Of a stretch of 64,000 nt of DNA, positions 29,531 through 64,000 are shown piece after piece. The position numbers and the translations under genes are program-made. Every line of letters begins with the position of its first letter. The stretch's first letter is position 1. The notes under the pieces were generated by a model. It was not told where the DNA came from. It ran no database searches and saw only the letters and a program-made list of their open reading frames with translations. The stretch comes from Malacoraja senta (taxonomy: Eukaryota), in NCBI GenBank assembly GCA_038087875.1, contig CM075989.1, positions 10,852,001-10,916,000 of the forward strand, written 5' to 3'.

Positions 29531-29921
29531 TATCGAGTTACTTGAGCCCACAATAAAACACCTTGAAACCCATCCTCTAAGTCATTTCATTCAAGAGTGG
29601 AGCTTCAGCATCTCTCATGTTTCAGATTTCCTTATAACAGAGGATGCGGCCATTTGGCCCATTGAGTTCATGCTACTCTCAGTGCACCCTCACTTCCCTT
29701 TCCCTCACTTATTTCCCCAACATTCACTCTACCAAGCAAATGCCAGGTTTTCAACAAACTTTGTGTGTAGAAGTTTGCCCCAAACCTCTTACTGGATCAG
29801 CTAATAATTTTACATTCATCTTTGACTGTCTCAGAAATGAAAACAATTAAGTCTCCCCCACAAAGAAAAACCCAGTGCCCAGATGTCATTGTCAATAACA
29901 AGGCAATTTCCTTCATATTAC

Positions 29922-32627
29922 CTTGTTATCCTTGGCCTCAATTTGCTTGGCAGATTCCTGAATGCTTTTCTGCAAATCACAGATTGTTGCCATGGATTCA
30001 TCATATTTATTTTTCAGCTCTTTAATTTCCTGTTCAAAGCTGAATGTTTTCGATTGAAAGGTCTCCTTTTCATCTTTAGCTGCTAGTTCTTTCTCTTTGG
30101 CATGCAACACTTCAGTAGACATGTGCTCGTGCTTCTCCTTCAACTTGGTCAGGTTTTCAGTTAATGAGTTTATCTGTGCTTCTAAAGATGTCTTCACCCT
30201 TTTGTGCTCTGACAAGTCCAATACTTGCTTTGCCTCCAGTTCTGTTATTGTTCTCGTCATTGCATCAGTATCCATGTGTAACTTGGAAATCTCTAAAACT
30301 TTTCCTTTCATTTCTTCCTCCCTCTCATTCATCTGGTTCTTCAGCTCTATAATATCTTCTTCCATCTTCTCTTTCAACTCATTGTGCTGCTGAAGTAGTA
30401 GATAATCTTTCCTCTGATCATCCAACTGGAGGAGGAGAGTGGCTACTTTCTCTTCCTCCTGCTCCAAAGAGTCCTTCACTTGTTCTTTTTCCTGCTGCAG
30501 CTCAGTAACTCTGCTGCACAGCGATTTTTTCATGCTTTCAAACTCCTCAACGGGAATGTATTCTAACCTTATTTTCTCTTCCAACACTTGGGCGGCCAAC
30601 TGCAGCCTGGCATTCTCTGCCTGTGACCTTTCATTCTGTAATTCAGAATCCACAATCCTCTTCTTCACTTCTTCCACTTGCTCATCCTTTTCTTCCATAC
30701 CACTGACAAACTTGCTTTCCATTTCTTCATACACGGCTTTGGAAATGTAATGGCATTCCAGATTTCCCTCCAACTGTGTAACCATTTTCATCAGCTCTTC
30801 TGTCTCTCCCTCGTATCGATCGGCTTTCCCTTGAAACACAGAACATTGCTGAGTTTTCTCTGACAATTGATTCTTCAGGTTATTCACCATGGCATTAACT
30901 GCATTCTGGTTTTCCTTGTAATTTTCAATGGGAATAAACTGTGACTTGATGGATTCTTGCAGTGTTCGAAATCTGTTCACCTGGCTTTCCTTTTCCTTGC
31001 TCAGTGCCACAACCTGCTCCTGAATCTCCTTGTAATTCAATTGAGTGTGTTCAACCTGCTTTTGAAGTCCCTCCTCTTTTCTGTTCCAGGCAGCCTTCAT
31101 TTCTTCATGCTGCTGAAGACTAACGTAGTCTCTCTGCACTTCATTGCACAGTTCAGCCAGCTGGTCTTTCAGTTCCTTATTTTCCTGCTCACACTTTGCC
31201 AATTCGTCTTGTACTACATTACATTTCTGCATCACAGTCGACAGCTCGATCGCAGCTTTCTCTGAAGTCGTGCTCAGGTGGGTTCTTAGTTCTTCGTGCT
31301 TTTCCAGGGGCACATATTGATTCTTCAATGATTCTTTCACGGCAACGATTTCTTTGAGTACATTCTCAGTCTCTTGTTGTGCCTGGCCATACTTCTTGTT
31401 GAGTTCATCCAGTTCCTTCTTCGAGCTGCCCAAGATGGAATTCAGCGCTATTATCTCCTCTTTGTGTTTCTCTGGAGGAACATATAGAGACTTCACATGA
31501 TTCAGGTTTTCACTTATTGTGTTCTTCTCAAGTCTTAACCCTTCTGCTTGTCTCAAAGCGTCCTTGTGCCTTTGTGAAACCTCGGAAATTTGCTTGTTCA
31601 GATCTTGAACTGCCTGGTTCAATGAAGATTTCATTTCGTCATGCATCTTCAAAGGTACGTAATGTGTTTTAAGTTTGTGTTTGAAGTCTTCCAGCTCAGC
31701 TTTGATAGTAACGTTCTCCAGTTTAATAGCTTCATTTTCCTTCTGCAACTTCTGATGCTTCTGCGTAACATCAGTAAGGATACCACTCTGGTTCTCCAAC
31801 TTTCCCTTCAGCAACTGATACTGCTCAATCTTCACACATGCCGCTATCTGGGCTCGCTCTCGCTCCAAGTCCTTCTGCAATTGAACAACTTCCACCTGTG
31901 CTCTCTCGTACTTGTTCCCCGTCGACGCCACCTGCTTCTCCTTCTCTTCCAACTTACTGAGGAACGAGTTTCTCATGTTCTCAAACTCTTCTGCCTGCAC
32001 GCACTGCGACAGCTTTGCCTTCACGCTCTTCAGTTCACCTTCAACTGCACCGACCCTTTTCTCTGCCTCCTGCTTCCTTTGCTCCGCCGTGCTCAAAGCC
32101 TTCTGCAGCTCTTTCACCTCCTTCATGTGCTGCTCCACATCCACAACCGGTTCCTCGATCGATAAAGCACCCAGTTTAATTTGGTGCTCCAACCTCTCCA
32201 CATTACCCACAGCTTCCTCGTATTTCGATTTCACTTCCCTCAGCTGATTTTTAAGTTCTTCCACCATCCTGTTGCTTCCCGCTGAGCCCTGCTTTGAAAG
32301 GTGATCCTTCAGGGCATTAACATGCGCTTGTAGGATCTTCACTTTACCTTCCGACTCAAACATTCGCTTCTGCACATCATTCAACGCATCCTCTAGCTGT
32401 CTAATCTGCTCATCCGATTCCTGCTTCACACGGTTGCACTCGTCTCTCAGGACATCACACTGCTTATTCCTGCTCACTAGCTCCTGCTGGAGACTGCCCT
32501 TCTCCTTCTTTGCCGTCTCAAACCACCTCCTCATCATCTCCAGATCCTTCACGTTTTCATATGTACCAGGTGTGCCGTGATCAATCAGCAACATATCACT
32601 TGACCCAACAGCCGATTTGGAAGAATG
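29922..32627 (-). CDS. UACA: UACA large coiled-coil exon (2706 nt, 902 codons)
   Basis: Acceptor atttttatttcag|CAT (11 codons before the ORF-track Met) and donor AAG|GTAATA, open throughout. Contains the UACA blocks SDEQIRQLEDALNDVQKRMFESEGKVK and IQESAKQIEAKDNK. Confidence 0.97.
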
Positions 32628-33196
32628 CTGAAATAAAAATATTTAGAAAGCCATTACTACAGCATAACAAGTTGAATGAAATATCCAAAACGCGTGGTGA
32701 TTTTGTGAAATTATTTGACAACTGGTGCCGTGATCCTAAATGCTATTTCATCAATTCGAGGCAAATTATCGTGATCTACCTCAACCAACTAGATCCGATC
32801 TCCCAACTTGCCTCATTGCAGACCTTGCACTTTTTTCACTGCACTTTCTCTGTAACTGCAACACCATAATGCTGTAACACTACATTCTGCACTCGGTATT
32901 TTTTCTCTTTGCTTCGTACTTGTGCATGGCTTGATAGTACTCATGTATAGCATGATTTGACAATAGTACACAAAAAAGTTTTCACTGTGTCTCAGTACAC
33001 TATAATAAATACTAATCCTATAATAATTACTAATCCTATTGTTGGTAATAACCAACTTATTAGCAAAATATCCACCTGTTTCTAATAATGTTGTTGGCCT
33101 AATCCATATGAATAAAATGAAGCTGCCTGCTTATGGAGGGCACCTACATAAGAAATTGTATAAAAACCCTTGAAACATGTCCAAAATGGAATGCTT

Positions 33197-37593: not shown

Positions 37594-38344
37594 GTAATGT
37601 TAAATGCCCACTAAACTTTATTAAACGTTTGGCTTCTTAAAAGTGTCTCCACTCCTTCTCTCACCCTTCTCCCCCCCCTCTCCGTGCTCTCTAAAGGACT
37701 TGTCGTTACTGTGCCAGCCGTCATTTACCTTCCTGTTCATCGCGAGTGTGAATTTCAGACAGCGCTCCCCCGCTTTCCCTGGCCCCCACCTTTGCGGTGT
37801 GTGTGTGCGTGTGGTGTGGTGTGTGGGGCGTGTGTGTGTGGGGCGTGTGTGTGCGTGGGGCGTGTGTGTGCGTGGGGCGTGTGTGTGCGTGGGGCGTGTG
37901 TGTGCGTGGGGCGTGGGCGTGTGTGTGTGGGGCGTGGGCGTGTGTGCGTGGGGCGTGTGTGTGTGTGTGTGCGTGTGGCGTGTGCGTGTGTGTGCGTGGG
38001 GCGTGTGTGCGTGGGGCGTGTGTGTGCGTGGGGCGTGTGTGTGCGTGGGGCGTGTGTGTGTGTGCGTGGGGCGTGTGTGTGTGTGTGTGTGCGTGGGGCG
38101 TGTGTGTGTGTGCGTGGGGTGTGTGCGCGTGGGGTGTGTGTGCGTGGGGCGTGTGTGTGTGTGTGTGTGTGCGTGGGGTGTGTGTGCGTGGGGTGTGTGC
38201 GCGTGGGGTGTGTGTGTGGACGGTCGATCCGGCTGGCGGTTTCATCGCTGACGGTCGATCCAGCTCGAGGTTCTTCAGGCGAGTGCCCTCGAGCTTGAAG
38301 GTTGAAGACAGTCGCTGAAAAGTCGCGTTAGTGGGACAGGCCCT
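37594..38344. mobile_element. Truncated Harbinger-like MITE carrying an internal GT/GC-rich tandem array
   Basis: The right end AGTGGGACAGGCCCT|TAA matches the TIR type at 21746-22050. The left TIR is absent at the CR1 junction. Confidence 0.6.
37797..38219. repeat. Compound (GT)n/GCGTGGGGC tandem repeat
   Basis: Repeated GCGTGGGGCGTGTGTGT-like units with variable GT length, read directly. Confidence 0.95.
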
Positions 38345-54055: not shown

Positions 54056-54429
54056 CTGTAATTTTTAAGGAAAATAATGCAATCACTTTAAATACAGGAT
54101 TTTTCAATGATGAAACAAAGTCTCAAGCTTGTGTGCATTGAATTATCTGTGATTGAATATCTGTGTGGCTCAGTTCATTCACCGATCAGTTGACATTTAA
54201 CATGACCTTTCCTCCAATCCATCTAAACTTTGAATCGGTGCTGCAGCAAGAGATTGGATAGTAATAATTAGTTTTGGTTGCATACAAACAGCAAAAGATA
54301 CAGGTGCTATGCAGATGATGTGTTGCCCAATCCTCATTTATTCTATACACGCTTCTGTCTCAATGCGCGTGTCAGCTTCTGAGTTAAGATGCTTCTTTGT
54401 AAACTAGCGATGGTGGACACCCATAAATT

Positions 54430-54647
54430 AATGGTGGTCTACAATGAGATGTGGAGTTAGAGGTACAGAATAAATGGTGGACTACAATGAGTTGTGGGGT
54501 CAGAGGTGCAGAACTAATGGTGGTCCCATAATGAGATGGGAGATTATTGGTATAGAAATAATGGTGATCCACAGTGAATTGTGGGGTTAGTGGTGCAAAA
54601 CAAATTGAGGTCTCCAATGAGATGGGAGGTTTGGGATCCAGAATAAA
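54430..54647. repeat. Degenerate ~43-bp minisatellite, about 5 units
   Basis: Units start AATGGTGG(T/A)C(T/C)ACAATGAG at about 54430, 54473, 54516, 54560 and 54603. Confidence 0.75.
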
Positions 54648-56856
54648 TCTCCTTCCATTAAAATTATATTGGACTTCGATACTCGAAATTCAGTATTCTG
54701 TATTTCAGCCTATCTCCGCTCAAAAAAAAATCTTCATTGATAATGGTCAAAGGGATGTACCCAGGGATCAGCAGGCAGTGCCCACATTTCGGAGAAAGGC
54801 TCCACAAAAGATTGGAGACCGGTTATCCTAATGGCCATCTTGTTGGAACTGCCGCAGCAACTACTCAAATACCAACAAAACAGGAAGAGATAAACTGGTC
54901 CCCGTAATTAGATTTATTATTTCAGAAAAGTCGGCATCTCATAAAAACTGATCCATTCAAAGTGCATTTAACAGTGCCAGCAGACTTCACTGCTGATGTC
55001 TTCACTGCTTAAGATCTTTCAAATTCTCCTGGAATTATCCACTGTGCTCTACAGCCTGGAGGTTTAAGTAGACATTTTAATGTAATTCAATTTCCTTCTT
55101 TCCAAAAACCAGGTAATGACCTTGCGCAATAATCACATACGCCCTGATCCAAGATACCCATTTATACAGTCATGCTTCTTTTAAAACACAGATTGAAATG
55201 TAATCATCTTTCCTGTCCGCCCTCCTCTCCATCATTCTCAAATTTCACCATGTAAGCTTTGAAAACAGCATGAGTGCCAGAGTGGAGAATCGTGAAACAA
55301 AGGGGTGGAGAACAGCTGTAATTGCCAACAGATGGCTGATCACAACAAAAGCTGTCAAGAACCAATTTCGAAGTGCAATGGCTTACTGCAGGAATCATTA
55401 CCAAGATTAAAATATTTACAATTGTCAAAAATAATTTTTAGAAAATCGCTAGGTATCTGAGGAGGGTGTTAGGTAGTGATGCTGCTTCACAGTACGAGTG
55501 ACCTGCATCTATTCCTGCATCTGCTGATGGCTGTGCAGAGTTTGCACATTCTCTCCGTGATCACGTGGGCTTCCTTCTGATGCTCCTCCCGTTTCCTCCC
55601 CCATGCTAAGGATGAGTGGGTCGGTGGGCTAAATGGCAGCCCACATCCCTGGTGCAGATGAATCAGAGGGAAGTGGATGGGCATGTGACAGAATAGGTTC
55701 CATAGAAATAAGTGGGGAATTGGGATTCTCCAAGGCAATCTGGATTCACTGGACGAAATGGACTCTCAATGCATGAAAAACACAGTGTAGTCCAACTCAC
55801 TGGAAAGACTGGTATATATTGCCCATTTCTGCTGAATTTACTGGGTTATTCCAGATAGCAGATATGAGTCTTATCAGGGAGAAGTCAGCAGAATGAGAGG
55901 GAAAAATAGATCAGCCATAATTGAATGATGGAGTAGACTGAATGGGGTGAATGGCCTAATTCTATTATTAAGTTTTTTTTGGTGAATAAGGTGATCCATA
56001 TAGGCCTTTGAAAGTCTTTGTTGAACCAAATGGTAAGTTTTTAGAAGTTTCATAGTCACCTCTACCGAGATTAGCCTTTTACTCCAGGTTTATTTAATTA
56101 CTTGAATTAAATTCCCATTTTGCTCTGGTGGGATTTGAACTTGCATCTCAGGATCAACAGTCCAGGTCACCAGCTTTAGTTGTTAAACTAACAAAACCAT
56201 TAGACATCAGGCAACATCCGAGAGTGTGGCCAAGGGGTTCTTCCCCACCACCCATCAAGATTCTCTGCAGGAGGTTGGGTTGGACAAAAGATAACGGGGA
56301 GCAGAGGAGGGGTCAAAATGGAGAGGTCAGTGAGGGGACAACAAAAGAACCTAGTGAGGGGATGAGAGGGGTAGATGCAGAACTGTTGAGGATTGTATAT
56401 TGAGATTGGGCACAAGCTTGGTATGATTCAGTCTGTCTTTGTATTATGAGGGTGCACAATAAGTTAGAGCATAGAGCCAAGTCTCCAATTGCCATTTATT
56501 CCCATCGGACCAAGAAGACACCCTACATTAAAAAATAAATAAAAGCACCAGTATCATTCACTCAAACCATTCTCAACTCCAAAGGTATGCCGGGAATTAA
56601 TTCAGCCTATGAAAAGAATCATAGTAAGAACAGGAATTGTTGGAAACCATTCAGCTGGCGCGGCAGCACCTCTGGTAAGAGAGGCAGAGTTAACTCAGTG
56701 CTGTTGAAGGGTCTTGAATCCAAAACATTGACGTTTCTCTCTCCACAGATTCTGCATGATCTGCTGAGTGTTTCCAACATTTCTTGCTTTATTTCAGATT
56801 TCCGATATCTGTAGGTCATTTACTGATGTATACGTGCAGTATTTTTCTAGACTTAC

Positions 56857-56894
56857 CTGAGAAACTTGGTGTAATTTCACACTGGATTCTCTCA
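56857..56894 (-). CDS. UACA: UACA exon (38 nt), (x)RESSVKLHQVSQ
   Basis: ctttttacccccacag acceptor and CAG|GTAAGT donor, phase 1/0. This is the most 5' exon found in the window. Confidence 0.75.
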
Positions 56895-57588
56895 CTGTGG
56901 GGGTAAAAAGGCAAAATATTAACAGCATGAATTATGAACAAATTCAACCTTCCTCTGCAATCCAGATTGTATAATTCGTGAACAAAGGTTAGCAAGGAAA
57001 TAGATTACACAGAGAGACAGTACATGGGTGGCAAAGTAATTGTGCAAGAACACCTTTGTAACAGTTAGTGCCACTTACATACAATCCATAGACCAACATC
57101 ACTGAAGGCACCTCTTAGGACCTCTGACACTTAGGAAGACATAGGCAGCAGACAAGAATGCACCCAACACGGGACACCCTACGCTGACATGGATGTAAGC
57201 ACCAGTCTTTCTATTGCTGGGTCTAAGTGCTGGAATTTCTTCTCCAACAGCACTGAGGGAGCCACCTTCAACAAAAAGTGCAACAGTTCAAGAAGGCAGC
57301 TCATCACATTCTGAGCTATTAGGAATGTGGGATAAATGTTGGTCTATCATGACACCCACAATTCACGACTGAATAGACAAACTTTGCCCTATGTTTGGTT
57401 GTCACAAATGGGAACAATTCAACATGTAGAAAAACAACTTCTACATGTAATATTCATGGAGCTGCATCGCAGTCTGAAAAAACAATAATTCAAAGTCCTG
57501 TTCATAATGTGAAAATTGTTCATAATGTGAAAATTCTACGAGCTAGAACAAAATTGTGTGTGTTAATAATCATAACACTCTATGATTA

Positions 57589-57778
57589 TGGGTGCTCCAG
57601 TTTCCTCCCCCATCCCAAAGGCGTGCAGGTTTATAGATTAATGGCCTCTGCAAATTGCCCCTAGTGTGTAGGGAGCGGATGTGAAAGTGGGATAAAATAA
57701 AACGAGTGTGAACAGGTGACCGATGGTCAGTGTGGACTCTGATCCGAAGGGCCCGTTTCCAAGCTGTATCTCTAAACT
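57589..57778 (+). mobile_element. HE1-like SINE, 3' part
   Basis: GGGTGCTCCAGTTTCCTCCC...AATTGCCCCTAGTGTGTAGG...CCGAAGGGCCCGTTTCC...TCTCTAAAC. Confidence 0.7.
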
Positions 57779-58225
57779 CTGTCCTGTTGTGTACCTGTCC
57801 AAATGTCTTTCATATGTAGCATTTGTTCCCGCCTCTACCACTTCCCTTGACCTATTGATTTTCCGCATTGATTTCATTTCATATTTGAAGAATAGTTTGT
57901 AGGAATACCCAGAATTCTAGTTAACATTTATATCTGAGTCAATGTCCTTAAAGCAGGCCATTATCACACGCTGGCTGTGGGAGCCTATTGTGATTTTACT
58001 TCGGAGTCACGTGAGTGACTACGTGAAGAAGACCCCGTCCAGCCGCACACGTGTCATATCGATCAGACGCATAGCGTTCATGACCGTGTGTGGAGGAGCA
58101 GGAGCTCCTCCGACCGGTGAGTAAAGCAAAAGTAAAGCAAAAGTCGGAAGGTAAGTGGGTTACTTTCACTTACAGGAGCGTTTCCTTCCCGTGCAGACTT
58201 GTTGGTGGAGCTCCACAAGTTTATT

Positions 58226-59700
58226 ATGGAGAAAGGGGAAGGAGAGGCGGCCAGGGACGCACCGTAGTAAAACCCCAGATCCTAAGGGTAGCGGGCGTCA
58301 GTCAGTGGAGTCAGTGGCAGCGAAGTCATTAACTCCCGTTGCGGTCGAGTGTGCCGTTAAACCGCCGGCGGCGGGGCGCAAGGCTGGACAAAAGTCGGGC
58401 CGACCTGTAGACTCGGATGAGTCAGACCCGGAGGTATACCCTCCTTAGGCAGGAAAGAATATTGCACTGCAAGGGTCAAAACTTTAGAACTCCTGATGGG
58501 GCAGATGATTTATAAAGAACCCCCACAGGAGGATTTAAGTCGGTGTTGGCCAATGGAGGATATAGCACAGGGGGTGCCTTGGATGGGACAGGCACAAGGG
58601 TGGCCTACAGGAGAGCCATCAGAAATGCCTGTGCAGAAACATTACAGTGGTTGGCCTACAGGAGAGCCAGTGCCCAAAAATGCCAGAAAAAAGGCAATAT
58701 ATGTGTTGGCTTATTGGAGAGCCAGTACTAGAAATGCCTGAACAAAAGGCAGCACAAACGTGCAATGACAAATGTGCCAGCACCGACAATATAAAGAGAA
58801 AAAATAATGAAGCGTTGGCCTAGAATTGAGCCAGCACCAGCAGCACCTGAAACAGGGCTGCCTATCCGTGGGCCTACAAGAGAGCCCGCGCAGGGGGAAT
58901 CTGGCAGAGACTTACCTGAAACAGGGGAGCCAGAAATTACCCAACATAAAGATGAATATCTAGATTCAGATGATGATTTATATGAGGACCAGAGCCCATT
59001 ATCAGAGCTAAAATGTTCCAAGGCTGGCACAAAAGTTTGCTGTTCCCAGAGTAACAGGGGAAACTTTGAGAGAGGAAATAGCTATGACTATAAATTATCT
59101 ACTCTCCCATCAGCCCCAGGAATTAACTATGGATGAGACTATCAAAAAGTATGAGAGCCCGGAAAATTGTGAATTGCTAGCAGTTCCAGCAGTGAATAAC
59201 TGGATATGGGTTATTTGAGCAGTGGTTTACGCTCACAAGAATTGAAATTACAACGAGTGCTGAAATTGCTGCGGTCAGGCATATCCAGTGGTATTGGATG
59301 AAGATTTTATATCGGATTCACAACAAAATGCATTAGCACTCATGTGTAGTGCGCACTTTGAAATAAATTGTATTCGTAAAATTGCAATAAGACCAAATAT
59401 TCATCCTAGTTATGCAGGCTCTGCAAACCATCCAATATACAAATGCCTAAATTTGCTTTTTGGAGAAAAACTAGCAAAGAAGCTAAAGGATCACCTATGC
59501 TGAGCAGAGCGGTGCGAAGGCAGTATCCCTATAGGCGAAATGCTGGTGCTGGAGAAGGAACAAGCCTATCATTCTCGTATACACGTTGACGTGCTGCACC
59601 GAGGATACGTGGAGGTTACAATGTGCCTACTAGAAGGGGCAACAATTGCCGGTGGCAAACCCCGAGGTAGGGGGGCTTGGTCTGGTAAGAAACGCAACAA
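58226..59700 (+). pseudogene. DIRS gag-like ORF1, fragmented
   Basis: Low-complexity N-terminal part, then YESPENCELLAVPAVN and IRPNIHPSY...LLFGE blocks typical of DIRS ORF1. Several stops and frameshifts. Confidence 0.55.
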
Positions 59701-61160
59701 ATGTTTCACACTCACAAATAAGGGGAAGGTTACGATTCTTCCTAAAAGAATGGCAATCAATAACAAATGATTCATTTATTCTATGTAGCATTGTAGGATT
59801 CAAAATTGAGTTCTCCACGTTTGGATCCTCCAATTCAGCATAATTCAAACTGGTCACGGATTTTCTCAAAGGAAGAGAATGTTGATCAAGGGAGAATTGA
59901 AAATTGTATGCGGAAAAGGGGTAATAGAAAAATCAGTAGAACAACACCATCAGTTTGTGTCAAATATTTTCCTAGAACAAAAAAGGATGGTGGATGTAGA
60001 ATCATTTCGGATCTGACAAATCTTAACCTTTATGTACAGTAGAAACATTTCAAAATGGAAACATTTACTAATGCCATTCAGCTGGTCACAAAGAATTGCT
60101 ACATGGCAAGCACAGATCTGCAAAATGCATATTATTCTGTGGCAATGCATGGTAATGATCAAAGATATTTGAAATTTAGATGGATGTCAGTTATGGCAAT
60201 TTAAAGCATTGCCCAATGGCCTGACTTCAGCACCAAGATTATTCACTAAATTACTCAAACCAATTTTAGCTCTGCTAGGATCTGAGGGCCATGTATTAAT
60301 GGTTTATTTAGATGATATTCTGATTGTGCGGGACACTTTGGCTACTGCAAAATTGTCAGTATCTAGAGCCAAATACATTTTGAAAAAATGGGTTTCATTA
60401 GTCACCTACAAAAATCAAAATTGTTACCGAGCAAGAATAATTGATTAGCTAGGGTTCACAATTAACTCTGAACACATGGTAATCACCTTGCCAAAAGAGA
60501 AGGCTGCAGTTAATTGAAGATTGCACTAAACTCATAAATGAGGACAAGCCTTCAATTAGAGAAGTGGCAAGCTTGCTGGGCAAATTAATTGCTGGGTTTC
60601 CAGCTGTCAGGTTTGGACCATTGCATTATCAATGTTTACAGAGGGCTAAGGTACAAGCATTAAAAATGAATACAGGGCATTTTGACAGGCCCATGAAATT
60701 AACAATTGGATCCATTACAGAAATAGAATGGTGGATTAACAATGTCTCTAATGCTTCCAGAAAAGTTCTGGTAGAAACACCTTCCGTCATTCTACAGACT
60801 GATGTAAGTGCTCTTGGATGGGCGCAACTAACATGATTTCCAGCTGTGGAGGTAGGTGGAATGTCGATGAAGTACCTTTCCTTGAAAATTAAGGAATAAA
60901 TTACCTAGAGCTGTTAGGAGCATTTCATGGCCTTAAAGCTTATTGCACTAATATGGGAAATGTGCATGTTCAGGTACAGGTTGACAATACTACAGCTGTA
61001 GCATACATAAATCACATGGGTGGTATCAAATCAGAATCATGTGATAGATTGGCAAATGAAATTTGGACCTGGTGTATTGTCAGGAAAATCTGGCTGTCAG
61101 CAATATATTTACCAGGAAAATTTAACACAATTGCAGACAAAAGATCACGTAAATTTAATG
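59690..61160 (+). pseudogene. DIRS reverse transcriptase-RNase H, fragmented
   Basis: GRLRFFLKEW, KKDGGCRIISDL, HFKME, DLQNAY, LPNGLTSAPRLFTK and YLDD, then RNase H motifs QTDVSALGW, INYLEL, VDNTTAVAYIN and NTIADKRSR. Multiple lesions. Confidence 0.9.
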
Positions 61161-61164
61161 ATAA

Positions 61165-61586
61165 TACAGAATGGATGTTACATCAGGAAATATTTAAGCA
61201 AATTGTAACACGATTTGGAATGCCAAAGATTGATTTGTTTGCATCAAGACTAAACCACCAATTGCCTAAGTATGTGTCACGGGAACCTGATCGTGGTGCA
61301 GTAGCGGTAGATGCTTTCTCGCTACATTGGGGTGATATGTTTCTGTATGCATTTCCTCCATTTTGTTTAAATCAATAGATGCCTACAGAAAATTAAACAG
61401 GACTCAGCCTCGGGGATTTTGGTGGTACCAGATTGGCCTACACAGCTATGGTATCCACTGGTGTTAAACATAATCAAAGAACCCCTTATGGTTATTCCAA
61501 AGCAGGTGAAACTGCTTGTAAACCCTGTAACTAATGAACCACATCCTTTATATGATCGTATTGGTTTGTTGATTTGCAGATTCTGA
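61165..61586 (+). pseudogene. DIRS DNA N6-adenine methyltransferase-like domain
   Basis: EWML...IDLFAS (SAM-binding motif I-like), DAF...W, YAFPPF (motif IV-like), then after a frameshift ILVVPDWPTQLWYP. Confidence 0.8.
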
Positions 61587-61589
61587 AAA

Positions 61590-62550
61590 GGTCATATCTT
61601 GGAAGAGGATTATCAGGCCGTACGGTGGATGTTATAGCAGCAGCCTGGAGGAATAGTACCCAGAAGCAGTACATTTCTTATATAAAGAAATAGGAGGTGT
61701 TTTGTTCAGGAAAGAATATTGCATATAGCACAGCAGAAATTTCAGATGTATTAGAGTTTCTTTCAACTCTTTACTACGAATTAAAAATTAAGTTATAGTG
61801 CAAACAATACTGCACGAAGTGCACTCTCTGCATATTAAGCAGTGAATCAGAACAAAATCCAATAGGATCACATCCTTGGGTCTGTAGGTTTATGAAGGGA
61901 ATTTTCAAATCCAATCCTCCTAGACCTAGGTACACAGAAATCTGGAATGTAAAAGATGTACTGATGCTGCTGAAGGATTCAAATCCTATTGAAACTCTGT
62001 CATTAGCCGAAATCACCATGAAATTGGTTATGCTGACGGCATTAGTTTCAGCTCAGAGAGTACAAACATTACAGAAATTAAATTGACAGAATGAAAGTAG
62101 GGGCAGATGCCGTTACATTCTATGTCTATGATTTACTGAAGCAAAGTAGACCTGGGTTCACGGGATGTAAGTTGGAGTTTTCAGCATGGCTATGTGTAGT
62201 AACATATGTAAGATGTTACATGGAAACAAACAGAATCTTAAGAGGCACAGAATTAGCATCTTTTATTAGTCATAAAAGTCCTCATAAGAAAGTGTCAACA
62301 CAGACAATTTCAAGATGGTTTGAAACAGGTGTTGATTTATTCAGGTATTGATACTGATAAATTAAAATCTCATTCCACCAGGGCGGCATCAACATCGGCC
62401 AGGGATTCAGACGTTCCAATAGACCTTATCCTCGCGGCCGCAGGATGGGCAAGTGAACAGATGTTTCACAAGTATTACCATAAGGAGATTAAAGATCCCG
62501 GGGTGGTTGGTGATGCCGTGCTGGGTTCAGTATTAAATCCCCCATTATGA
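61590..62550 (+). pseudogene. DIRS tyrosine recombinase, fragmented
   Basis: Catalytic signatures SAQRVQTL (R), LKQSRPG, KSHSTRAAS (HxxR), AAGW and FHKYY (Y). Stops and frameshifts present. Confidence 0.9.
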
Positions 62551-62704
62551 TAAATGGGTTAATTTGTTAAAATAAATAGAACCATTAACTGATTACATTT
62601 AATGTTGTGGTTATGCATTGTTGATTGTGCTTACTCAATAGAGTCAATCAGTGCAGTGAGCACCTGGATTTTAATCCACGGTGTGAAATCACAGAGCTTT
62701 GAAA

Positions 62705-62817
62705 TCTTCACGTAGTCACTCACGTGACTCCGAAGTAAAATAGTAAGATTAAACGAGAACTTACCAGTTTGAAGTTTGATCTTTATTTTATGAGGAGTAA
62801 CGTTGAGGGATTACGTG
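62705..62817. repeat. DIRS internal complementary region (ICR)
   Basis: 62705-62741 is the exact reverse complement of 57993-58029 (37 nt). 62740-62817 is the exact reverse complement of 62964-63041 (78 nt). Confidence 0.95.
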
Positions 62818-63519
62818 CCCTCCGCTCCCACCCTCATAAAAGGATCGAGCTGGTAGTTCTAAGTCTTTATGCATCTTACTATCATACTTCAGTAATTATC
62901 GTCTGTGATTTTCACTCCGCTGCTTTGAAGATTGACGCGTGTACGGCTGGACGGGGTCTTCTTCACGTAATCCCTCAACGTTACTCCTCATAAAATAAAG
63001 ATCAAACTTCAAACTGGTAAGTTCTCGTTTAATCTTACTATCAAATTGCTAGCGAGCCAGCTACATAACAATTTCATAAATGCACTTCAAAGTGGCTGTA
63101 AACAACTTTGGCATATCCAGAGATGATAATGAATACTTTAGAAATGCTACTCCCCATTTTAGGATCCCCACATCTTGCACTTTCGCTATCGATTGTATTT
63201 TGAATTGAAGAATTGTGATTACGTGAAGCATGTTTGTCATTCTGAACCTAATGAATGAAACAATTTACAAATGACCATAAAGTATTGAAGCACACAGGAG
63301 AGGGAGAGGAACTCAGCCACTTTTGTAATGAATTAAAAATGAAATATTTTACACGATTTAAAGCAATAACAATTATTGGAATAACAAACAATAATAAATC
63401 AATTTAAAATCTTATAGGGGTGAAAGGCAGCAAACAGCTGGAAACCATCCTGGAAGTGAAGGATGAATGAAAAACATTCATTTTCCAGTAAATGGAAAAG
63501 TGGCCAATTTGAGATGTTT

Positions 63520-63950
63520 ATGACAATATAAAAGTCAAGGAAGAGGCTTACAAAGTTTCCACAAATGCTGTTGACTCAATGAATGGAAGACTTCAGAACC
63601 AAGACATTTAAAAAAAAAGACAAGATAAAAATTGAGAAACAAATTAATGAGAATCATAAAAATAAGCTTCAATAGCAAGGCCAACAGGAAAAGAGAAGCA
63701 AGGAGAAAATGTTGATCTCTTACAGGTAGAAAAGGGAGAATATAATAAGCAATTAAGAAATAGCAGAGATATTAAGCAAACACTTTGTCTGTGTTCTTGG
63801 AAGACAAAATAATCCTGCCAGAAATACCAGAAAACCAAAGGTCTAGTACAATGGGGTACTGAAGGAAATAAGTAATAGAATTTAAAAAAAGGTTATTAAG
63901 AGAAGCAAGAGGAGATTATAAGGGTCTTGATGGAGTCCCTTTCAACTTCT
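63520..63950 (+). mobile_element. Degenerate CR1-type ORF2 fragment
   Basis: Remnants of the endonuclease-RT linker (AAGCTTCAATAGC...ACTTTGTCTGTGTTCTTGGAAGAC), similar in character to 44200-44600. Confidence 0.45.
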
Positions 63951-64000
63951 CTAGCCAGAAAACTGTTGAGTAGCAAATGTTGTTCCTTTGTTTAAGAAAG

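Follow-up and report, generated by a model that had tools for sequence, protein, structure and literature searches.

A coding-dead DIRS1-like retrotransposon with ICR-matched ends in the genome of Malacoraja senta

This analysis revealed that positions 57993-63041 of the window (the whole 64,000-nucleotide stretch of Malacoraja senta DNA that was analysed) hold a full-length, coding-dead DIRS1-like retrotransposon comprising gag, RT/RNase H/MT and tyrosine recombinase (YR) regions. This single locus is a dead transposon. In our preferred, tentative reading (probability about 0.45), it is a copy from a large, old cartilaginous-fish family, itself functionless and outside any sizeable dead subfamily, and its ends were reset when a parent that was already dead underwent one round, or a few rounds, of copying in trans. 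We observed the structure, the lesions, the high copy number of the family and the rarity of this copy's changes among its relatives, and we infer the history of re-copying.

So far, Dictyostelium has been the main system for testing DIRS replication, and a family that numbers hundreds to thousands of copies in one vertebrate offers a test case. Each copy carries three repeat pairs (left end/ICR, right end/ICR and inner ITR/ITR) that can be compared with the divergence of its body, a comparison which separates dead-donor re-copying from hairpin conversion and reveals which terminal parts are reset in each cycle.

Structure of the element and its termini

The element spans 5,049 bp on the forward strand, as do all features given below, and is the only copy of its kind within the 64-kb window; no TSD is apparent beyond a 2-nt junction overlap. 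Its left terminus (57993-58029) is complementary to the left ICR (62705-62741) over 37/37 nt, and its right terminus (62964-63041), consisting of the outer ITR and the right extension, is complementary to the right ICR (62740-62817) over 78/78 nt. Both pairs of inverted arms are therefore 100% identical, as the preliminary description had reported, CpGs included; each ICR-paired arm holds three CpGs, and as repeats the arms stand far above chance expectation. The 78-bp fold-back at the 3' end, with 146 nt between its arms, has a predicted stability of -103.8 kcal/mol (z = -17), which was equalled by 0/100 shuffles.

The two ITRs are not identical, their outer part being divergent and their inner part (left 58020-58056, right 62933-62969) conserved: 65 columns align at 86% overall, and the inner 37 nt contain two mismatches. 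These fall in the inner pair 58030-58056/62933-62959 and involve copy-specific changes at 58052, a CpG-type transition, and at 62943. At the 3-nt circular junction, the left end matches 3/3 and the right end 2/3, at a putative target site; the third base at the right end (63042) is unpaired with the ICR. The termini had been described as perfect, which holds for the ICR-paired outer arms but not for the inner ITR or for this junction base. Directly inward of the left ITR lies a CpG-rich leader (58057-58226), the presumed promoter and 5' UTR; CpG o/e is 0.93 in 58060-58450 versus 0.36 in the element body.

Terminal split direct repeats, the hallmark of PAT and Ngaro elements, were not present among the six direct-repeat families of 56000-64000, which counts against membership of those groups. 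The window contains no second copy of either flank, save one weak match (E 0.032).

Coding region and lesions

The element is colinear with the gag-pol-YR protein P0022, and all three of its ORFs, which share one strand, are broken. Frameshift-aware alignment against intact relatives called four stops and at least 17 frameshifts, so that the earlier count of at least ten lesions was an understatement; all eight positions named at that time were accurate, give or take a few bases, and the TAA lies at 60890-60892. The gag-like ORF (58227-59690, start and end approximate) has at least five frameshifts (59014, 59210, 59290, ~59414 and ~59450), each observed against four to eight of nine references, and contains a 21-nt repeat in five copies at 58598-58887. 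In pol (59681-61586), which comprises RT, RNase H and an MT-like domain, three stops (60040, 60446 and 60890) are accompanied by at least eight frameshifts: those at ~59972, ~60187, ~60380, ~60435, ~60500, 60822 and 61370 are present against every covering reference, and at least one more lies at ~59815-59830. The YR ORF (61568-62550) has one stop (61691), four frameshifts (~61784, ~61835, ~62082 and ~62320) and two in-frame losses (~62190 and ~62398). As relatives reach about 60 aa farther upstream, this ORF probably overlapped the end of pol.

The YLDD motif of pol (60305-60316) and the HSTR motif of YR (62371-62382) are undamaged. Pfam matches include RVT_1 (E 1.8e-6) and Phage_integrase (E 3e-6), the PF00589 match in YR scoring 27.6 bits against a cut-off of 27.1. 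The MT-like domain, which follows RNase H, gave matches below the cut-off (PCIF1_WW, E 3.4e-4; Dam, E 0.029) and aligns to relatives that give the same weak Dam match.

Family members in public sequencing runs

Contigs from four of eight listed public runs were compared, two from the same species (X1 and X2) and two from other organisms (X3 and X5), whose contigs do not cover the unique flanks. No RNA data set was listed as containing the element, which carries no information on its expression. The family is high-copy in the contigs of all four runs, and its other members are mostly without the changes of this copy. The comparison is based on 40 of 365 differing-site rows: at 35 of these 40 listed sites, about 95% or more of the depth differs from the window in both X1 and X2. 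Two stop sites and eight frameshift sites are among the listed sites at which other family members are without the changes of this copy. The lesions are private as far as the contigs can show, which is one half of the outcome that the preliminary description had named as refuting its claim; contigs lose rare variants, so one or a few sister copies could escape detection.

The alternative letter makes up 98% of the depth at 58052 and 99.8-99.9% at 62943 in both runs. At 62982, in the ICR-paired right end, it makes up only 82-83%, and the window's letter there may therefore be a subfamily state. The last 24-25 nt of the element are common to other family copies. The sequences at 62982 and 62943 each occur twice per element, yet their depths are unequal.

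Both X1 and X2 contain the right junction of the insertion, and in X1 the site looks homozygous-filled. An empty-site joint was not among the 15 of 128 joints listed, an absence that carries no evidential weight.

Divergence of the body and of the ends

The divergence (d) of the element body is about 3%, with bounds of 1.8-4.8%. The stops give 2.9% (CI 0.6-8.6%), the share of words held gives 1.8-2.0%, which is a floor, the closest X3 contigs give 2.2-3.6%, and the differing places in X1 give up to about 4.8%. Among the ICR-paired bases, by contrast, 0 mismatches in 228 were observed against 6.8 expected at d = 3%. The probability of this outcome is 1.1e-3 at d = 3%, 0.017 at 1.8% and 1.8e-5 at 4.8%, and it is 3.5e-4 when indels are included, of which the paired segments have none against about one expected. 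Their 12 CpG dinucleotides are likewise undamaged.

The copy-specific changes at 58052 and 62943 adjoin the ICR-paired segments (2/54 versus 0/228, Fisher P = 0.036) and are therefore evidence against wholesale replacement of the ends. If the inner ITR was also reset during replication, the anomaly is weaker: counting it as reset gives 2/282, with P = 0.12 at d = 1.8% and 0.01 at 3%. Strand-biased hypermutation, as would result if an RNA or cDNA intermediate had been edited, was not seen (P >= 0.30 in 8/8 tests), and strong CpG decay was not seen, with 1/13 of the listed C-to-T or G-to-A type changes at a CpG.

Divergence since insertion is at most about 1.3%. The insertion had been described as young, which is appropriate only in this relative sense, and the site looks filled on both homologues in X1. 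A rate of 7e-10 per generation, taken from the available text of PMC10587355, would convert 3% into about 4e7 generations; this is not credible, and the rate therefore does not transfer simply.

Origin of the matched ends

In the re-copying scenario, a parent copy would have lain dead in the genome, accumulating most of the ~3% change, while retaining its CpG-rich leader and being transcribed. Intact relatives would have supplied the gag, RT and YR by which its RNA was reverse-transcribed and integrated once or a few times. The outer ends would have been re-synthesised on the ICR during this cycle and would consequently match it, whereas the RNA-derived parts, among them both inner ITRs, would retain the parental damage; the new copy would afterwards have become common or fixed. 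Templating of DIRS ends via the ICR, which the preliminary description had taken as established, is a published model, and RT acts in trans (PMC7192593, available text). The difference between the ends and the body holds up statistically, and the proposal that most lesions predate the insertion is the single most likely reading, while staying a matter of inference.

Several observations count against re-copying. The X1 and X2 contigs show no sister copy that carries this damage, the site appears to be filled on both homologues in X1, and one would expect about three private changes in the ICR with mirror counterparts in the ends, none of which is demonstrable in the 40 of 365 rows, where 62982 is the one site of that region. 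In PMC7192593, a truncated construct yielded cDNA but did not complete transposition in the assay used. The active helper invoked earlier was not seen: the search for an intact helper returned protein relatives that are all at most 79% identical.

A somewhat doubtful alternative is an ordinary old insertion of an intact element that was damaged in place, the 228 ICR-paired bases having escaped mutation by chance. As the default fate of any copy it has a high prior, and in a rough model it is preferred at d = 2% unless the prior for re-copying reaches about 10%. It agrees with the apparent privacy of the changes, with a mutation spectrum lacking strand bias, as for decay of chromosomal DNA, with an inner ITR as diverged as the body and with an insertion site that looks fixed. 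At the central d, however, it requires an event of P = 1e-3, together with 12 intact CpGs and the lack of indels.

It is less likely that the insertion is old and that gene conversion or template switching at the fold-back homogenised its 78-bp arms, while chance accounts for the match of the short left pair. The very stable hairpin, with arms 146 nt apart, would favour such a process. At d = 3% a perfect left pair alone would arise with P = 0.11, and the other long-range pair, the inner ITR, is diverged; moreover, conversion of terminal repeats makes LTR elements of plants look young (PMC7251063). Nevertheless, all of the ~5 expected changes would need correction, no supporting evidence was obtained, and PMC7251063, in its available text, deals with direct repeats.

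A broader and rather improbable reading is that in this family, genome-wide, the ICR and ends outlive the body, either because intact relatives copy full-length dead elements again and again or through self-correction of the hairpin in the chromosome. A hint comes from read depth in the four runs: 62982 exceeds 62943, which lies 39 nt from it, by factors of 6, 14, 9 and 8. The repeatedly re-copied set would perhaps also include short end-only derivatives. If this reading were true, ages of DIRS elements derived from ICR-end identity would be biased, and vertebrate DIRS1 would include a hidden non-autonomous population.

Very improbable is the lineage that had been proposed to be undergoing copying, in the sense of a coding-dead subfamily of many full-length copies that an active helper amplifies. 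The perfect ends would fit it, as would the ICR and right-end sequence being far deeper than the body in all four runs, and a length difference in only 6-55% of the depth at the listed frameshift sites in X1 and X2 is compatible with sharing, although gaps are invisible in short contigs, which lowers these shares. Against it, the window's letter occurs in zero contigs of X1 or X2 at 12/40 listed sites, despite the persistence of contigs at 1-3 times single-copy depth at other listed sites, and 9/11 longer contigs have net lengths consistent with absence of the window's breaks. As this copy's changes are mostly missing from the rest of the family, a widespread coding-dead lineage is unsupported; no empty allele was seen. 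An assembly artefact, with lesions arising as sequencing errors in a repeat or ends polished to the family state, is the least credible explanation: the window's own body letters are unconfirmed by reads or contigs and several indels lie in short runs or dinucleotides, but the flank contigs of X1 and X2 show 0 differences over ~1,000 bases each, a 909-codon open frame persists at 29916-32642, the differences are mostly substitutions (158/270 transitions in X1), and the perfect arms stand alongside two private inner-ITR changes.

Comparison with known elements

Both action in trans and non-autonomous elements of the DIRS order have precedents. The ends of one of the latter, TOC1, are split direct repeats, and Repbase contains non-autonomous zebrafish DIRS families. 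TOC1, from Chlamydomonas, is a precedent for mobilisation without own proteins and, unlike the present copy, a true multi-copy non-autonomous family (PMC9940879, available text). Dictyostelium DIRS-1 shares an ICR complementary to both ends and has an RT shown to act in trans, but differs in its long ITRs and active copies; the available text of PMC7192593 demonstrates trans action for RT, not the completion of a cycle that starts from the RNA of a coding-dead donor. The listings of our literature search, which covered mainly open-access papers, contained no report of this family or of vertebrate coding-dead full-length DIRS1 lineages; the element annotations that accompany PMC3266345 may include comparable cases.

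Closest in structure are DIRS1-like elements whose ITRs are short and whose ORFs have no long overlap, such as LgDIRS1 and AcaDIRS1 (Table 3 of PMC3266345, from its available text as for all values here). The size (5,049 bp versus a mean of 5,160), the conserved ITR (~37 nt versus 31-36), the right extension (~45 nt versus 48) and the ICR (37+78 versus 39-86 and 45-88) are comparable, and the start ATT, the putative circular junction AAT and the YLDD and HSTR motifs are the same. An imperfect third right-junction base is also given for several elements of that table. Unlike them, the present element is coding-dead and has a vertebrate host.

A search of metagenome, viral and prokaryote collections for an exact 24-base terminal pattern gave 0 matches, and a metagenome protein scan yielded, among 32 candidate stretches, one locus (L001, 56%) whose repeats are without DIRS termini. 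The best named relatives are predicted DIRS-derived proteins of skates, Amblyraja radiata XP_032904474.1 and Leucoraja erinacea XP_055488383.1 and XP_055504906.1. Identities of skate proteins to the RNase H/MT fragment are 75% and 71%, a comparison made at the protein level between different families or species. For gag, the closest named match comes from Leucoraja erinacea, a protein with 57% identity over 62 aa.

Results

The DIRS1-like element at 57993-63041 on the plus strand, the sole copy within the 64-kb window, was found to combine ICR-matched outer ends with dead reading frames. As claimed in the preliminary description, the ICR (62705-62817) pairs with the left end (57993-58029) at 37/37 bases and with the right end (62964-63041) at 78/78 bases, with three CpGs in each paired arm; its left and right halves (62705-62741 and 62740-62817) overlap by two bases. 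The "perfect termini" of that description hold for these pairs but not for the inner ITR pair (58030-58056 versus 62933-62959), whose two mismatches it omitted, nor for the third base of the right-end junction, which is not as in the ICR. A third-base mismatch of this kind also occurs in several of the published elements in Table 3 of PMC3266345. By domain order, ITRs, ICR and junction, the element is assigned to the DIRS1-like superfamily. Its terminal anatomy most resembles that of LgDIRS1 and AcaDIRS1, two elements with short ITRs, and its best named relatives are skate proteins (57-75% identity), which makes a skate or ray the probable host. Among the publications listed in literature searches, none dealt with this family. 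A DIRS-like pol relative (56%) lies at 2596-3054 of L001, a 3.8-kb metagenome contig among whose repeats there are no DIRS termini.

Coding lesions were mapped by frameshift-aware alignment to intact relatives ranked best in protein searches, namely nine gag proteins, nine pol proteins plus the gag-pol-YR relative P0022, and seven YR proteins. Four reproducible stops (60040, 60446, 60890 and 61691) and at least 17 frameshifts (gag 5, pol 8, YR 4) were identified, which bears out the earlier count of at least ten; YR also carries two in-frame losses. Towards the 5' side, within the first half of gag, additional breaks seen against a single reference were excluded from the count. The YLDD and HSTR motifs are both intact. 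Since gag, pol and YR are all dead, the element is unable to mobilise itself. Three frameshift pairs (59414/59450, 60380/60435 and 61784/61835) are close, the second shift undoing the first after about 35-55 bases, and a 21-nt unit recurs five times in the gag region (58598-58887) at spacings of 51-109 bases.

Eight public runs share words with the window, two of them more than half. Four of the eight were compared with 57000-63400 at 85% likeness, all as contigs, in which rare variants are lost. In X1 and X2, contig sets from the same organism, the unique flanks are matched without a difference, over about 620 and 380 bases in each run, at depths of 25 and 4, and the body reaches 1.1-3.1e5 and 1.3-5.3e4, respectively. 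Since summed depth is not copy number and is inflated by overlapping short contigs, perhaps up to 30-fold, we keep our estimate for this organism at hundreds to thousands of copies. The family is also present in X3 and X5, from two other organisms, where the unique flanks have no cover.

A single unbroken X1 contig starts at 63018, crosses the right junction and continues into the flank, its depth of 22.9 being close to that of the left flank (25); an equivalent X2 contig starts at 63017 (depth 3.8). An empty allele would make the contig graph branch at this junction, so X1 looks homozygous for the filled site. The element side of these contigs spans 24-25 bases (below the 31 required for bridging), and their starting there implies that the last 24-25 bases are identical in other copies. 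Both runs come from one study, and the assembled animal may itself be the source of X1, so they do not constitute a population sample.

With regard to the lesions, the comparison listed 40 of the 365 rows for substitutions and 12 of the 72 for indels, under an unstated selection rule. In 35 of the 40, X1 and X2 alike have another letter at roughly 95% of depth or above, which lends no support to the proposal that a coding-dead lineage is being copied; at 12 of the 40 the window's letter occurs in no X1 or X2 contig. The listed rows include two of the four stops: the other letter accounts for 99.5% (X1) and 99.1% (X2) of depth at 61692, and for 65% and 98% at 60448. Of the 12 listed indel rows, eight coincide with mapped frameshifts and a ninth with an in-frame loss; the length difference appears there in just 6-55% of depth, which by itself is compatible with shared lesions. 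Depth falls at these sites, and short contigs unable to display gaps probably account for the low shares. Net length was assessed for 11 longer contigs of 32 listed records, six further break-spanning records having unresolvable gaps; nine are consistent with absence of the window's breaks and two, both from X5, gave no simple fit. Both inner-ITR mismatches are private to the element (other letter, 98% and 99.8%). Because the window's letters are rare, most of the net lengths fit contigs that lack the breaks and the inner-ITR changes are private, a sizeable dead subfamily is unlikely. Nevertheless, one or a few sister copies would escape detection in contigs, as do the element's own letters.

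Divergence of this copy from its source was 2.9% as estimated from three stops in 2,265 in-frame sites (CI 0.6-8.6%), or 3.9% with the fourth. The share of words held sets a floor of 1.8-2.0%, and 270 differing places in X1, SINE and subfamily sites included, set a ceiling of about 4.8%. To the closest four of eight listed X3 contigs divergence was 2.2-3.6%, and to the other four 4.9-9.8%. Had all change arisen in place, the probability that none fell in the 228 ICR-paired bases would be 0.017 at 1.8%, 1.1e-3 at 3% and 1.8e-5 at 4.8%; at 3% the right pair alone gives 0.009 and the left 0.11. The inner ITR (2 changes in 54 bases) is consistent with the body rate. Change since the ends were last equalised has an upper 95% bound of 1.3%.

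Discussion

We tentatively favour, with a probability of roughly 0.45, a single copying of a dead parent by helper proteins acting in trans. In the DIRS model as outlined in PMC7192593, the outer ends are absent from the transcript and are restored with the ICR as template; the process depends on the ICR, and the reverse transcriptase acts in trans. The outer ends would thereby be reset while the interior retained parental damage, and this damage would extend to just inside the reset segments, matching the observed pattern. Such re-copying predicts about three ICR changes that are private to this copy and have their counterparts in the ends. The sole listed row in these segments, 62982, has the other letter at 82-83%, and the window's letter may be a subfamily state.

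That all damage arose in place and spared the ICR-paired bases by chance is the next most likely reading; against it stands P = 1.1e-3 at 3% divergence. The same DIRS model also has part of the left ITR rebuilt on the right ITR (PMC7192593); if this covers both inner-ITR mismatch sites, those changes would postdate insertion and the anomaly would shrink (2 in 282, P 0.12 to 0.01 for divergences of 1.8-3%). Conversion that keeps the ICR and ends alike is somewhat less likely than chance; conversion between terminal repeats is described in PMC7251063 as distorting age estimates. A rough model with our own priors and 12 settings gave 0.14-0.94 for re-copying, 0.01-0.65 for chance and 0.05-0.39 for conversion; the final weights are judgements, not measured values. 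Decayed DIRS copies are described as common (bioRxiv 10.1101/2021.08.05.455354), and PMC9940879 documents a non-autonomous element of the DIRS order. A spreading coding-dead lineage is highly improbable here, the window's letters being rare in other copies. An artefact is the least credible reading, and sequencing error is an unlikely source of the differences: the flanks are identical in two runs, a 909-codon frame stays open at 29916-32642, and the differences are mainly substitutions (transitions 158/270), among which a test for strand bias found none. The 909-codon frame, on the minus strand, is coiled-coil-like, has a weak Pfam Rod_CreS match below cut-off and is probably a large host exon.

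One lead reaches beyond this single dead locus, namely a family-wide excess of ICR/right-end depth. Depth in the four runs is 2.8e6, 7.2e5, 200 and 77 at 62982, and 4.6e5, 5.0e4, 23 and 10 at 62943. Although summed depth is not copy number, the ICR/right-end sequence (62964-63041, 62740-62817) is carried by far more molecules than is the body or the inner ITR. The surplus may stem from short derivatives or from other subfamilies with common ends, the simplest source being subfamilies that share ends and have bodies less than 85% alike.

Ten X1 contigs over four listed joints, from other loci, link 57769-57778 to 57992, 62736 or 62739, placing a left or right end of the family just past the 3' tail that closes a SINE-like repeat (57589-57778). 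These are independent insertions, perhaps with a preference for A/T-rich tails. The flanks 57960-57992 and 63042-63170 resemble what we take to be halves of one old SINE relic split by the element, of which the window holds no second copy. Elsewhere in the window lie a minisatellite with a 43/87-nt period (54425-54648) and a long GT-rich tandem array (37797-38218).
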